Source: an uncultured Methanosarcinales archaeon (GTDB lineage Archaea > Nanobdellota > Nanobdellia > Woesearchaeales > CAIVOO01). From it: a stretch of 64,000 nucleotides of DNA. Below the pieces are notes generated by a model. It saw nothing but the letters and a program-made list of their open reading frames with translations, searched no databases and was not told where the DNA came from. The stretch's first letter is position 1; every line of letters begins with the position of its first letter. This document shows positions 13,857 to 17,786 of this stretch, one piece after another. The position numbers and the translations under genes are program-made. The DNA is taken from the NCBI GenBank assembly GCA_964485195.1, contig CAZAIK010000007.1:1-64000 (forward strand). The letters are read 5' to 3'.

Positions 13857-14765
13857 ATGCCTTATGAATTCAACAAGGAGAGAGCATTGGCAGTCATTCC
13901 CAAACTGGTGGAGAGCCTGAGGAACAAGACATATATCTTCTCTTCAGCAGGGCTTCCTGATGAAAGAATCCCTGAAGAAATAGAGAAAGGTTCAAGGGAG
14001 CACGCTAACTTCCTGATGAACTTCTGCGCGCTGACAGCAAGGGTCCCTTCCAACGAATTATACGATGCATACGCCCGCTTCCACCTTTACCACAAAGACT
14101 TTATTGACAGCTATCCTGAAAGCAGGTTATGCAATGCATTACAAGATGAATTGCACATGGGACTTGCGAGGAAAAGGGCAGGAGAGTTGGTCAGGCGAAG
14201 GGCTGTTATAAAAAACTCTTATGACAACGACCCCAGAAACATATTTGCCAGGTTTCCGGAGCCAAGGGAGGCTGTTCGTGCAATGGCAAAAGGAAAGGAC
14301 AAGTTGCCCGGATTTGCATACAAAACAGCTGCATTATTCACCCAATATGCCCATAAATACAGATTCGCCAGTTTTGAGGACCCAAAGAGACTGTTGCCTG
14401 CTATAGACACCCACAAGATAAGGATCTTTAACACAGTGGGAATTCTTGATTATGACTCCGGAGGCAAGGCCCCCAGCAGTGTCAGGAGGTTGCTTACAGA
14501 GGATTTTGCGATTGAACTGTCCGATTTCTGCGCTGAGAATTATCTTGACATCCTTGCTCTTGACGAGGCAGTGTGGATTCTTGGCGCTGAGATATGCAAG
14601 AAAAACAATATTGCCTCCTGCGCCAACGCCTGCCCCATAATGGAGGAATGCTCCCACGAATACAAGAAGGAGCGGGGTGCGGAAATAGCCAGCAGCGTCG
14701 TCAATAACAAGAGCCAGATGAACCTTTTCAGGCAGGATAAAAAACTCACAATCCTCAAACAATAA
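13857..14765 (+). CDS. HhH-GPD superfamily DNA glycosylase-like protein
   Basis: LPGFAYKTA (HhH with Lys), PAIDTH (catalytic Asp region), C-terminal Cys cluster CKKNNIASCANACPIMEEC. Confidence 0.65.
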   Translation: MPYEFNKERALAVIPKLVESLRNKTYIFSSAGLPDERIPEEIEKGSREHANFLMNFCALTARVPSNELYDAYARFHLYHKDFIDSYPESRLCNALQDELHMGLARKRAGELVRRRAVIKNSYDNDPRNIFARFPEPREAVRAMAKGKDKLPGFAYKTAALFTQYAHKYRFASFEDPKRLLPAIDTHKIRIFNTVGILDYDSGGKAPSSVRRLLTEDFAIELSDFCAENYLDILALDEAVWILGAEICKKNNIASCANACPIMEECSHEYKKERGAEIASSVVNNKSQMNLFRQDKKLTILKQ

Positions 14766-14796: not shown

Positions 14797-15552
14797 ATGG
14801 CAAAGGAACAGCTGTACAAAAGATTTGCAGAATATTATGATAAAATTTATTCTAAAAAAGAGTATGATAAGGAAGTTAATTTTATAGATTCTATTTTAAA
14901 GAAACCTAAGTTAAAAGGAAAGAAAATCCTTGATGTTGCGTGCGGCACAGGAAAGCACACCAAGCTACTGAAAGCAAAAGGATATTCTGTGACAGGGGTG
15001 GACATAAACCCGGAAATGCTGAAAATCGCGAGAAATAAAGCAAAAGGCGTTAAATTCATTAGAGGCGATATGAAGGAACTGGACCTGAAAGAAAAGTTTG
15101 ATGCCATAATTTGTATGTTTACATCCATAAATTATAATACAAACTTGAAGGAAATTAAAAAAACATTAAGCAATTTTTACAAAACCCTGAATAAAGAAGG
15201 GGCCGTGATATTTGACTTGGGCTTGACAAAAAAAGGCAGGGTTGGCAGGCCAAAAGATTGCGCAAACATTGACGCTTACTCTGAGGAGGATCTGCAAATA
15301 GCGAGAATAAGCCAGTGGCACCCGTCAGGAGAAGATAAGAATATATTCAATGCAATTTTTCTAATGTTTGTAAAAGACAAGGGAAAAGTAGATTTTGAGA
15401 TTGACGAGCATAAGCTGGGGGCGTTTGATCCGGAGGAAATAATCAAAACAATGAGATCAATGGGATTCAAAGTCTCTGTCTATGACAATTTTTCCCTGAA
15501 AAAATACACTAAAAAGTCAAAAAGAGCGGTTTTTGTAGGAGTAAAAGGATGA
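14797..15552 (+). CDS. class I SAM-dependent methyltransferase
   Basis: ILDVACGTG motif I; GVDINPEML; GDM; FDAIIC. Confidence 0.92.
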   Translation: MAKEQLYKRFAEYYDKIYSKKEYDKEVNFIDSILKKPKLKGKKILDVACGTGKHTKLLKAKGYSVTGVDINPEMLKIARNKAKGVKFIRGDMKELDLKEKFDAIICMFTSINYNTNLKEIKKTLSNFYKTLNKEGAVIFDLGLTKKGRVGRPKDCANIDAYSEEDLQIARISQWHPSGEDKNIFNAIFLMFVKDKGKVDFEIDEHKLGAFDPEEIIKTMRSMGFKVSVYDNFSLKKYTKKSKRAVFVGVKG

Positions 15553-15666
15553 ACAGCTATCCGCAAGCTTTATAAACCAAATATTTCTCATCAGCCAATA
15601 GGGCCCGTGGTCTAGTGGCTAGCGCATGATGTGTCATCAAACGCGTCAAGCCCGCAAATGACATCA

Positions 15667-15997
15667 CCTTGACGAGCGAGCGGAGCGAGTGAGTTAAGAC
15701 CAGGAAATTTTTGATTTCCGCTGCCTTGACGAGCGAGCGGAGCGAGTGAGTTAAGACCAGGNNNNNNNNNNNNNNNNNNNNNNNNNNNNNNNNNNNNNNN
15801 NNNNNNNNNNNNNNNNNNNNNNNNNNNNNNNNNNNNNNNNNNNNNNNNNNNNNNNNNNNNNATTTTTGATTTCCGCTGCCTTGACGAGCGAGCGGAGCGA
15901 GTGAGTTAAGACCAGGAAATTTTTGATTTCCGCTGCCTTGACGAGCGAGCGGAGCGAGTGAGTTAAGACCAGGGAATGGTTTCCTGCCTTGACGTGG
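15667..15997 (+). repeat. tandem 57-bp repeat inside the tRNA-Val intron
   Basis: Unit CCTTGACGAGCGAGCGGAGCGAGTGAGTTAAGACCAGGAAATTTTTGATTTCCGCTG starts at 15667, 15724 (cut by gap), 15879; 51-bp variant at 15936; last CCTTGACG at 15987. Confidence 0.85.
15762..15861. other. scaffold gap (100 N)
   Basis: Run of exactly 100 N inside the repeat array. Confidence 0.99.
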
Positions 15998-16134
15998 AAT
16001 ATCGCTCTGTATCGTTTCAAAATGGTGAGGGTCGCCGGTTCAAATCCGGCCGGGCCCACTATTAATCCTGACAGCTTATGCTCAGTAGCACCTGGTCAGA
16101 CAACATTTAAAAACAAAACAAGCCTCCTGGTTTT

Positions 16135-17100
16135 ATGGAAATGCAGCAGTTGATTAAGGAGTACTTCTCTTCTATTGGCATTGCTGTCAAAACTGCCTCT
16201 CTTTTGGAGAGGGGGACCAACAAAAACACTTACAGGATGGAGGCCGGGAAAAAATTTTACATCCTGAAACTGTTTGATGCGAAGATGTCATCGCGCATCC
16301 AGCAACAAATCCAGTGGCTCAGGCTCGCCCATAAAATTGATGACATAGCAATCTGCCCTCTGAACGAAAGCCTGCTGCGCATCGGAGGAAAAGAGGGTTA
16401 TTATTATGAGTATTTTCCAGGCAAGCCTGTGATGGAATCAAATATTCCCAATGTGTTTCCAATTTCCGGAAGGGTGGTGGGCCGCTTTGACAAAGCAATG
16501 GCCAAGGTTGAATCTTTTGAAGCAAACGCGAAATTTTGGAAAGAAAATGAGGAAGGGCGTGTGAAGGCAACTGTCAAAAGCCTGCAAGGGTCTGAAGACA
16601 GCTATTTAGAACAGCTTGCAGGAACAATTCAAAAAGCATACAGCCTGGCAGAATCAGGTCTTAAGAAAGCAGACATAAAGGGATGCAGAACGCAGCTCAT
16701 CCATTCTGACCTGCACTTCAACAATATCCTGTTTGACCGGAAAGCAAACAAATTCAGGGTAATAGACCTTGACGGGTTAAATCCCGGACTGCTGGCCCAG
16801 GAAATCGCGGTCACTATGAGCTATGCATTAACAGACGACGCAGGCCAGATGCAGGAGAAACACCTGGCAGAATTGCTGAAAGCTTATGATGGGGCTGTTC
16901 AGCTGCTCCCTGAGGAGAAAAGCCTGATCCCCCTTCTGGTTATAAAGCGCAAGATCACGGAGTTTATGTGGCTGTACAATAAATGGGAAGAGCGGCATTT
17001 CAGCAGGGAGGAATTTGACAGGTATCATGTTCAAACTATAAGAAACCTGAAATCCGCTGTTGAGAATTATGAGGAACTGAAGTATTTGGTGCGGATTTAG
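16135..17100 (+). CDS. aminoglycoside phosphotransferase / homoserine kinase type II family protein
   Basis: IHSDLHFNN catalytic loop, VIDLD metal-binding motif, N-terminal GTNKNTY...ILKL. Confidence 0.85.
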   Translation: MEMQQLIKEYFSSIGIAVKTASLLERGTNKNTYRMEAGKKFYILKLFDAKMSSRIQQQIQWLRLAHKIDDIAICPLNESLLRIGGKEGYYYEYFPGKPVMESNIPNVFPISGRVVGRFDKAMAKVESFEANAKFWKENEEGRVKATVKSLQGSEDSYLEQLAGTIQKAYSLAESGLKKADIKGCRTQLIHSDLHFNNILFDRKANKFRVIDLDGLNPGLLAQEIAVTMSYALTDDAGQMQEKHLAELLKAYDGAVQLLPEEKSLIPLLVIKRKITEFMWLYNKWEERHFSREEFDRYHVQTIRNLKSAVENYEELKYLVRI

Positions 17101-17291: not shown

Positions 17292-17786
17292 ATGGAAGTT
17301 GCTCAGTACAGCGTGAAACCGAGTGTAAGCAGTTTTCTGCTGCCGCAGTTTTTCAAGCTTATAGGGTTGTGTGCGGCTTTTTATGGAGGAATCTGGATAA
17401 ATTTTTATCTTTTGGGAAGCCAGCTGCCCTTGTGGATCACAATATTGGTGATAATAGCGCTGGCAGGCCTGCTCACAGCCCAGCTTTTCATTACCAAAAA
17501 AAGGGCAAACAAATGGCATTATGACTTCTTTTCAAACAGGGTTGAGTTTTACGGCAATAAGCTCAAGAGCATACTTTACTCTAATGTCCAGTATGTGAAG
17601 GTGAAAAGGAGCCTGTTTGAGAGGCTTACAGGCACAGGCACGATAGCACTTTCAAAGGGTTTCAAAATCAGCCACGTGAGAAATTATGAAGAAATCAAAA
17701 ATTACTTAAATCAATTAATACAAAACTTCAGGGCATACAGGGCTCAGCAGGCCTCAGCAAGGTATGCTGCTGGATATGGAGGATAA
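17292..17786 (+). CDS. membrane protein with bacterial PH-like domain
   Basis: Two TM segments, then VKVKRSLFERLTGTGTI. Confidence 0.7.
   Translation: MEVAQYSVKPSVSSFLLPQFFKLIGLCAAFYGGIWINFYLLGSQLPLWITILVIIALAGLLTAQLFITKKRANKWHYDFFSNRVEFYGNKLKSILYSNVQYVKVKRSLFERLTGTGTIALSKGFKISHVRNYEEIKNYLNQLIQNFRAYRAQQASARYAAGYGG

Follow-up and report, generated by a model that had tools for sequence, protein, structure and literature searches.

Introns that interrupt archaeal tRNA genes and are cut out at a bulge-helix-bulge (BHB) motif, as known from Thermoproteales, ARMAN and other DPANN lineages, are the closest described relatives of the locus reported here. tRNA genes with several introns, introns at non-canonical positions and splicing endonucleases of broad specificity are described in PMC4090602 and PMC3239211. 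Our locus lies in a 64,000-nt window (GenBank assembly GCA_964485195.1, contig CAZAIK010000007.1, positions 1 to 64,000) from the genome of an uncultured archaeon, hereafter G000; its contigs carry C-numbers, and stored loci of the module described below carry L-numbers. Judged by its sequence, the locus holds a tRNA-Val(GAC) gene that carries two predicted introns of the BHB type, one in the D loop and one at the canonical position 37/38. It resembles the known introns in that the 37/38 intron is accompanied by the anticodon stem, a 4-bp helix and bulges, a further intron sits in the D loop, and the genome encodes both the endonuclease EndA and the ligase RtcB. Unlike them, it has a relaxed 5' bulge and a 37/38 intron whose interior is filled by tandem copies of a dispersed hairpin module, which repeat the exon end.

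For the transposed tRNA introns that Fujishima et al. (2010) described in Thermoproteales, PMC4090602 speaks of an unknown mechanism, thought to act at the DNA level. As in those introns, related sequence occurs here within different tRNA genes (tRNA-Val and the loci L023 and L031), and intron presence varies among close relatives. The modules, however, lie mostly outside tRNAs, after the ends of RNA genes or opposite a Shine-Dalgarno (SD) sequence and start codon, carry direct and inverted copies of their target, and have no fixed orientation within tRNA genes. Duplicated attachment (att) sites are a further point of comparison, and disruption of tRNA genes by integrative mobile elements, creating introns and split genes, has been proposed in PMC3293823. 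Direct repeats of a tRNA 3' end flank the insert in both cases, and tandem accretion is possible (L014). The module inserts, unlike att-flanked elements, measure 50-110 nt without cargo or integrase, include an inverted copy, and target SD sequences, the 16S end and an anticodon loop as well. Integrase-driven att duplication was set aside as an explanation: the inserts hold no open reading frames (ORFs), the sole tyrosine recombinase match in G000 is on another contig (C13), and the targets extend beyond tRNA 3' ends.

In Bacteria, the REP/BIME, Correia/NEMIS and Rickettsia palindromic elements are protein-less, hairpin-forming and multi-copy, sometimes in tandem or mosaic arrangements. The module resembles these repeats and miniature inverted-repeat transposable elements (MITEs) in being protein-less, about 50-110 nt long, hairpin-forming, present in many copies, intergenic or tolerated in genes, and found in tandem arrays. 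It differs from them in lacking conserved terminal inverted repeats, in a direct repeat that ranges from 5 to about 60 nt, and in an arm that follows its own flank. A MITE or classical transposon was accordingly dropped as a class: the arms vary per copy, and searches of G000 and its same-genus relative G001 gave no match to Y1 transposase, reverse transcriptase or serine recombinase (DDE transposases were outside this search). The introners of eukaryotes are transposon-derived introns; like them, the module is a dispersed non-coding element with copies inside introns, which suggests that elements can seed or enlarge introns. Unlike introners, it would depend on a protein endonuclease and not on the spliceosome, and there is no evidence that a module alone brings both splice sites.

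A search of the literature, supplements excluded, returned no description of such a target-copying hairpin module. While the kind of intron (BHB) is itself known, a canonical intron built of tandem copies of a dispersed, target-copying hairpin module is new, as is its combination with a one-unit homologue and an orthologous site that is empty. We consider it probable that the locus is a single-copy, functional tRNA-Val(GAC) gene with two endonuclease-spliced introns, in which the 37/38 intron carries a passenger module array duplicated by slippage or unequal exchange. The route by which tRNA introns arrived in Asgard archaea is still open according to the abstract of a 2026 preprint, and the origin and spread of archaeal tRNA introns is an open question in general; the present locus ties a canonical intron to a dispersed and apparently recently active element.

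Anatomy of the tRNA-Val(GAC) gene

Removing both predicted introns in silico (Table 1) leaves a 73-nt perfect cloverleaf that ARAGORN identifies as tRNA-Val(gac). The orthologue in G001 is an intronless Val(GAC) gene with an identical anticodon loop, including U38, at a syntenic locus whose neighbours are 49% and 64% identical to the window ORFs at 13857-14765 and 17292-17786. All exon stems are intact in G000, and its substitutions relative to G001 preserve pairing. By inspection, a box TTTATAAA lies at 15568-15578, about 25-30 nt upstream of the gene, and the same box precedes the gene in G001.

ARAGORN reported no tRNA at this locus when run on the window. With introns allowed, it proposed a tRNA-Asp(gtc) with a 373-nt intron, a reading that would imply mismatches in the D stem and a variable arm as long as 18 nt; we rejected it because the two-intron reading agrees with the G001 gene. 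Standard tRNA finders thus miss or misname the gene. When 15401-16300 was compared with Rfam by cmscan (E<=10), the units remained without a match, and the only hits were spurious ones to the T arm on the wrong strand. Neither blastn nor ARAGORN found a second Val(GAC) gene in G000, a genome rated 99.47% complete; genes for valine tRNAs with the anticodons TAC and CAC lie at C16:3945-4036 and C1:69506-69577, respectively. As for the processing enzymes, the splicing endonuclease EndA is represented by a PF01974 match at C6:47586-47843 (101 bits) inside a 183-aa ORF at C6:47319-47870, and the ligase RtcB by a PF01139 match at C1:64771-66063 (584 bits).

The D-loop intron has a candidate relaxed BHB by inspection, with a central helix GTGG (15615-15618) / CCGC (15652-15655) that includes one G.U pair, bulges CT|A and AA|A, the 3-bp D stem on the outside and a weak inner helix. 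A homologous D-loop intron of 18 nt occurs at the identical site in tRNA-Val(TAC), where it forms a clean inner hairpin, CGCA-TAA-TGCG. ARAGORN calls this second gene Arg(ccg), and Val(tac) once the 18 nt are taken out.

Within the 37/38 intron, each unit joins a purine-rich linker to a hairpin, and its last letters are CCTTGACG, which equals the 8-nt exon end at 15667-15674. The arm GTTAAG before the core pairs with CTTGAC after it (one G.U). The variant unit shares its linker and its GTTAAG/CTTGAC arms with the others, its top being shortened to CAGGGAATGGTTTCCTG (15970-15986) without the CG bulge. With a difference confined to the hairpin top and a far lower score against the family model R1 (see below), we read it as a decayed copy. 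Tandem Repeats Finder reports a period of 57, 2.0 copies and 98% matches over 15862-15977.

Table 1. Features of the tRNA-Val(GAC) locus, in window coordinates of the scaffold
Feature	Position	Strand	Remarks
tRNA-Val(GAC) gene as scaffolded	15601..16058	+	458 positions including 100 N; 303 nt once the duplicated 55-mer is merged
Exon 1: acceptor 5' strand, D stem 5' strand, D loop to position 21	15601..15621	+	
Predicted intron 1, 37 nt, D loop	15622..15658	+	equivalently 15621-15657, position 20/21; cloverleaf requires its removal
Exon 2: D stem 3' strand, position 26, anticodon stem, loop TTGACG to position 37	15659..15674	+	anticodon stem TCACC at 15664-15668
Predicted intron 2, canonical position 37/38, as scaffolded	15675..16022	+	348 positions including 100 N
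Unit 1, 57 nt	15675..15731	+	R1 60.8 bits, E 2.3e-13
Unit 1, linker	15675..15692	+	
Unit 1, inverted target copy GTTAAG	15693..15698	+	
Unit 1, core hairpin ACCAG..CGCTGC	15699..15724	+	
Unit 1, direct target copy CTTGACG	15725..15731	+	
First 30 nt of unit 2, to contig end	15732..15761	+	
100-N scaffold gap	15762..15861	.	identical 55-mers either side
Second print of 55-mer 15707-15761 (unit 1 end and unit 2 start)	15862..15916	+	
Remainder of unit 2	15917..15943	+	full unit is 15887-15943 in scaffold coordinates
Variant unit, 51 nt	15944..15994	+	weak R1 match, 27.9 bits, E 3.6e-4
Intron tail, 28 nt, ending TCAAAA	15995..16022	+	
Exon 3: U38, anticodon stem 3' strand, variable loop, T arm, acceptor 3' strand, discriminator A	16023..16058	+	GGTGA at 16024-16028

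The array is interrupted by a scaffold gap, and the last 55 nt before it are identical to the first 55 nt after it, so that the scaffold prints one stretch twice. Elsewhere in G000, identical 55-mer flanks are found at two 100-N gaps that lie in repeats (on C9 and at C1:103823), and none of six others shows an overlap. A shared 55-mer is how neighbouring contigs would look in a k=55 assembly graph, and the gap is most likely a spurious, unresolved repeat loop rather than lost DNA. Merging the scaffold at the 55-mer gives a 303-nt gene with two identical units, the variant and the tail, in which the halves are 193 nt apart; the true intron length is most likely these 193 nt (57 + 57 + 51 + 28).

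Two public DNA runs of one microbial-mat study, here X1 and X2, hold the region, X1 being possibly the sample from which the genome came. The flanking contigs of X1 end at 15696 and 15944, with depths of 8.65 and 7.58. Depth rises to 16.4 in a 79-nt unitig of the unit and to 22.4 in a 38-nt unitig common to all unit junctions, i.e. about 2.0 and 2.8 times the flank depth, the expectation for two identical units and a variant. In X2, an 87-nt unitig (57 + 30) forms a closed cycle that requires at least two tandem units. From unitig depth and the shortest graph path, we estimate the copy number at about two identical units and one variant. An apparent joint skipping 15622-16031 in the contig mapping was traced to the intronless tRNA of another organism, in which the intervening letters differ. 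Exact-string scans with the intron 5' start and 3' end against metagenome contigs, and with the hairpin against genome contigs, gave no match each and yielded no strain variants. In general, 100-N gaps with shared 55-mer flanks are to be read as unresolved tandem repeats and not as missing sequence.

The first-pass annotation had proposed a tRNA-Val(GAC) gene with a 37/38 intron of tandem hairpin units, and the cloverleaf and the G001 orthologue bear this out. Its 57-nt units ending in the 8-nt exon-end copy are confirmed by the full units 15675-15731 and 15887-15943, as is a last unit with a different hairpin core, and the checks it suggested, for another tRNA-Val(GAC) gene and for the unit in related genomes, gave the results reported here. 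Its outer gene ends were correct, but it divided the tRNA into two halves and overlooked the D-loop intron, which splits the 5' half itself. Its spacing of at least 250 known nt between the halves falls to the merged value above, and the copy number it considered unknown because of the gap can be estimated from the depths and the shared 55-mer. Its claim of at least two genuine units stands insofar as the contig right of the gap runs unbroken from a partial unit through a complete one into the variant; the duplicated 55-mer among its copies is a scaffold artefact.

Two further repeats in G000 also surround 100-N gaps. At C20:1015-1500 and C1:103600-104150, the tandemly repeated unit is the T arm and the 3' part of the acceptor of a class-II tRNA; the copy on C1 has a T-loop insert, and its gap shows the 55-mer overlap.

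Predicted splice motif and homologous introns

The predicted 37/38 motif comprises an outer helix TCACC/GGTGA of 5 bp, a central helix of 4 bp in which TCAA (16017-16020) pairs with TTGA (15669-15672), a 3' bulge AAT formed by AA (16021-16022) and T 16023, and an inner helix of 14 bp. The last of these joins the tail (16002-16016) to the first linker (15675-15688) with three G.U pairs, on the sense strand, and one bulged A. When pre-tRNA models with zero to three identical units were folded, the first linker was always paired with the tail, which would draw the splice sites together. Folds were also constrained by forcing the anticodon stem, the TTGA/TCAA helix and open bulges. At the true site, such a fold lies 0.2 kcal above the minimum free energy for zero, one or two identical units. 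In contrast, a BHB forced at the internal copies of CCTTGACG is 10-22 kcal/mol worse than at the true site, because each internal copy pairs with GTTAAG within its own hairpin.

Homologous introns were sought among 151 genomes of the order. A T-arm/acceptor pattern matched 45 of these; 30 stored loci were examined, and ARAGORN called Val(GAC) in five. The gene is intronless in G001, G024 and G075, carries a different 26-nt intron in G058, and holds an 83-nt intron in G082, a member of another family. The G082 intron reads linker, GTCAAGG, core, CCTTGACG and a tail ending TCAAAC, and thus contains one unit. Over the 35 nt of exon end and linker, it shares 89% identity with G000, and by inspection it has a canonical BHB in an intact gene. 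In BLAST searches over the 151 genomes, the 37/38 intron was common to G000 and G082 only, and five other genomes gave matches of no more than 22-25 nt to the G082 intron. Furthermore, the linker-plus-core element of G082 occurs at three further sites, each with its own target copies. The one-unit form would then be the basic state, and the G000 array a local tandem duplication of the resident unit. Repeated insertion at the anticodon is unneeded because the G082 homologue has one unit. For the growth of the array, slippage or unequal exchange involving the 8-nt repeats is the most likely route.

These results revise what had been proposed for splicing and origin. The annotation had derived the array from repeated insertion or slippage; slippage is retained as the most likely route, while the one-unit intron makes repeated insertion superfluous. 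The intron 3' end does pair with the linker and form the TTGA/TCAA helix in the folds; the additional idea that it could pair with any unit is allowed by the sequence yet disfavoured in the folds. Alternative or recursive splicing finds no support: the 3' splice half, TCAA-AA|T-GGTGA, is present only once, so that cutting at an internal copy and then ligating would leave units without a 3' site.

The dispersed hairpin-module family

By blastn, the 57-nt unit was found at the tRNA-Val locus only. From a motif scan and six copies we built a covariance model, R1, and its matches indicate that the unit is one copy of a dispersed family of target-copying hairpins that is not specific to tRNA and had been overlooked in the first reading. 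In G000, R1 gives 12 matches at E<=1, namely ten strong ones, the variant unit (E 3.6e-4) and a weak match on C5 (E 0.03). The strong matches comprise the two tRNA-Val units (both full units score 60.8 bits), three on C9, three beside protein genes, and single copies just behind the 16S 3' end and, in the rRNA spacer, behind tRNA-Ala. Counting G000, matches occur in 32 of the 151 genomes, with 1-14 per genome.

All copies centre on a conserved bulged core, ACCAG-stem-loop-stem-CGCTGCC. In 53 aligned copies, 94.2% of cells pair, compared with at most 52.5% in slid controls, and double-change cells number 113 against 32.6 +/- 4.3 in shuffles, none of 500 of which reached the observed value; the alignment was fitted to R1, which favours these pairing figures. 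Helix G.U and A.C counts are 21 and 23, so that neither RNA strand stands out.

The module follows the order target X, linker, a segment complementary to the start of X, bulged core, and X again. More specifically, X is a tRNA 3' end in L009, L011, L013, L014, L020 and L030, and a tRNA 5' end on the other strand in L024; further targets are the end of 16S plus spacer, and the complement of an SD and start region. The complementary segment sits between two conserved segments and corresponds to each copy's own flank. A direct repeat of the 3' flank of at least 10 nt lies upstream in 19 of 52 copies, compared with 2 of 52 in a reversed control, and one of at least 12 nt in 18 and 0, respectively (one copy was skipped for N, and array members are included). 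The length of this repeat varies from 5 to about 60 nt among copies. By inspection, the helix between inverted and direct target copies usually shows one mismatch, G.U or bulge at about the seventh pair counted from the core, also in copies whose direct repeats still match perfectly (L008, L009, L010, L013, L014, L020, L030 and L097).

An alignment of the rRNA spacer revealed that the G000 copies after 16S and after tRNA-Ala are both absent from G001, G004, G005 and G006; these apparently genome-specific insertions point to recent activity of the module. The insertion next to 16S, specific to G000, measures 110 nt (C3 minus strand, about 125260-125370; L001 5260-5370), duplicates some 26 nt, among them the anti-SD-bearing 3' end of 16S, and has two GAAA-tetraloop hairpins before the core. 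Modules lie mostly outside RNA genes and in both orientations. In L023 and L031, they are inside tRNA genes near the anticodon, oriented opposite to the tRNA-Val copy.

No searched enzyme tracks the presence of the module. Serine recombinase was found in 34 of 151 relatives, and not in G000, G001, G005 or G006; Y1 transposase and reverse transcriptase each occur in two of five module-rich genomes and in neither G000 nor G001. A single tyrosine recombinase match was obtained in four of the five module-rich genomes, with one each in G000 and G001. As a guess, copying could proceed by hairpin-driven template switching of host polymerases.

Several other identities for the module were dropped. K-turn, C/D box, CRISPR repeat, attC and origin recognition box (ORB) were set aside, as their defining motifs appear to be missing. 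A reading of the core itself as a BHB was rejected by inspection: on the sense strand, the bulges lie on the wrong side of the 3-bp helix, and on the other strand the topology fits, yet with a 3-bp helix and bulges of 1-2 nt.

The gap on C9 lies in a 50-nt tandem repeat with the architecture of the tRNA-Val units and compensatory stem changes. This second array (C9:21405-21665; L002 2405-2665) holds at least three 50-nt copies of the same module family opposite the SD and start of a nucleotidyltransferase gene, and its copy number, with the gap there flanked by 55-mers too, is probably also overstated.

Proposed origin and role of the array

The proposed explanation starts from a dispersed module resident in the 37/38 intron, made up of a linker, a target-complementary segment, the bulged hairpin ACCAG-stem-loop-stem-CGCTGC and a direct target copy. 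At tRNA-Val the target would be the exon end CCTTGACG, so that exon end and module copy together would provide 8-nt direct repeats. Slippage or unequal exchange between these would duplicate the 57-nt unit and yield two identical copies and one decayed variant. The anticodon stem, the TTGA/TCAA helix and the 14-bp linker-tail helix would then form a slightly relaxed BHB at the true exon ends, while internal look-alike sites would stay locked within their own hairpins, and the pre-tRNA would be cut once per end. EndA and RtcB would release and join the parts. The units would be passengers, i.e. selfish or neutral DNA, and not a splicing device.

Several observations weigh against this explanation. 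In the 5' bulge, CG is followed by an A that can pair with 16016, giving a 2-nt bulge or a 3x1 loop and hence a relaxed, non-canonical motif, and by inspection the helices flanking the D-loop intron are weak. The sole EndA match is a 183-aa alpha-type subunit (no search for a beta subunit was made). Should it assemble as a strict alpha4 enzyme, it might cut relaxed motifs poorly. Among the public data, no RNA runs are listed with the locus, so that expression and splicing in vivo are both predictions. The array is bridged by no public contig from X1 or X2, and the populations behind the copy-number estimate may be mixed. Finally, G001, G024 and G075 lack the intron and the distant G082 has it, so that the direction of change may have been either way, through losses from a shared ancestor or through transfer.

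Could the array instead be an expandable device, with repeated 5' splice copies that permit alternative or recursive splicing, or with units excised as linear or circular small RNAs? All unit ends equal the 8 nt of the exon, all unit starts are AGCGA and would pair beside TCAA, the sequence permits helices with any unit, and archaeal introns excised at a BHB become circular. We nevertheless regard such a device as quite unlikely, since the lone 3' splice half means that units left after an internal cut could not be removed, and the internal sites, paired with GTTAAG, lie 10-22 kcal above the true one. By inspection, moreover, the core bulges on the sense strand are 2 nt long and precede the 3-bp CAG/CTG helix on its 5' side, so that a BHB is mirrored, not matched; a single unit suffices in G082, and the module occurs mostly outside RNA genes in both orientations. 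The array might also have inactivated the gene and left decoding to tRNA-Val(TAC) or tRNA-Val(CAC), both of which exist (C16:3945-4036 and C1:69506-69577), and an unusually long and repetitive intron with a relaxed BHB and no listed public RNA run would fit a dead gene. Against this stand the intact exon stems with pairing-neutral differences to G001, the retained TATA-like box upstream, splice helices that are intact with G.U pairs on the sense strand only, the absence of any other Val(GAC) gene found in the nearly complete genome, and the homologous intron kept in the intact gene of G082. A dead gene is very unlikely on this evidence, and the tRNA-Val(GAC) gene is probably functional. That the identical copies arose from mis-joins or mixed strains, with one consensus unit or none before the variant, would agree with the gap inside the array, the 55-mer printed twice, the lack of a spanning public contig, and an X1 that is possibly the source sample and hence not independent. 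Such an artefact is highly improbable given the unbroken contig right of the gap (25 nt of a unit, a full unit and the variant), the twofold and 2.8-fold depths of unit and junction unitigs in X1, and the closed-cycle unitig in X2.

A regulatory role of the module was weighed as well, in which it would be a cis-acting RNA in opposite-strand 5' leaders, neither mobile nor selfish, and its tRNA-intron copy a by-product. Of 28 copies that are not at tRNA genes, 22 have an ORF on the opposite strand whose start is 11-64 nt away. Scanning 21 of these (L043, with a CAA start, was left out) identified ribosomal stalk P1 and DUF5320 three times each, as well as Alba, L15e, deoxyhypusine synthase and SDR; P1 and DUF5320 recur in different genome families, one DUF5320 case coming from G137, a genome that is unpublished. 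In addition, 42 of 53 copies share an A.C mismatch that would be a G.U on the opposite strand. Copies after tRNA and 16S, in contrast, have the sense orientation of the RNA gene that they follow and are remote from start codons, and copies within tRNA genes take both orientations (tRNA-Val compared with L023 and L031). The patchy spread in 32 of 151 genomes with 1 to 14 copies, the empty sites in close relatives and the near-equal G.U and A.C counts also speak against regulation, and a preference for CCTCC-like targets would equally put copies opposite SD sequences. We therefore judge a primarily regulatory module unlikely and return to the passenger array as the preferred explanation.

At the stalk loci (L042, L021 and L027) and the DUF5320 loci (L008, L010 and L015, of which L010 is the case from G137), the reverse-complement module stands, in gene orientation, just upstream of the SD. 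The leader order there is a GGAGG-like decoy, the hairpin, a CUCCUU-like anti-SD, the SD and AUG, and it recurs across genome families. At these genes, the reverse-complement module may act as a leader element on the gene strand.

A broader idea, possible but doubtful, is that hairpin modules seed and enlarge the protein-spliced tRNA introns of DPANN archaea as an archaeal counterpart of introners, being protein-less elements that write direct and inverted copies of their target, perhaps via template switching. If this were true, the long-hairpin shape itself would supply the inner helix needed by a BHB intron, and the empty site of G001, the one-unit intron of G082 and the tandem array of G000 would be three stages of one process. 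Irrespective of this idea, genes with no intron, one unit and two plus one units form a natural series for experiments, and the splice-site look-alikes in the array allow a direct test of how the endonuclease chooses its site.

The host is a Woesearchaeota-type (DPANN) archaeon, in agreement with the titles of the closest relatives of its aspartyl-tRNA synthetase (59-63% identity), namely Woesearchaeota, Nanoarchaeota and uncultured archaea. This synthetase (C3:33691-35430; locus L004 191-1930) is of the bacterial type, and outside DPANN-labelled records its nearest relatives are Clostridia at about 45-52% identity. In the window, two ORFs at 14797-15552 and 16135-17100 directly adjoin the tRNA-Val gene and have no counterpart at the syntenic locus of G001, whose tRNA is bordered directly by the outer neighbours; these two extra ORFs may represent DNA gained beside the tRNA.

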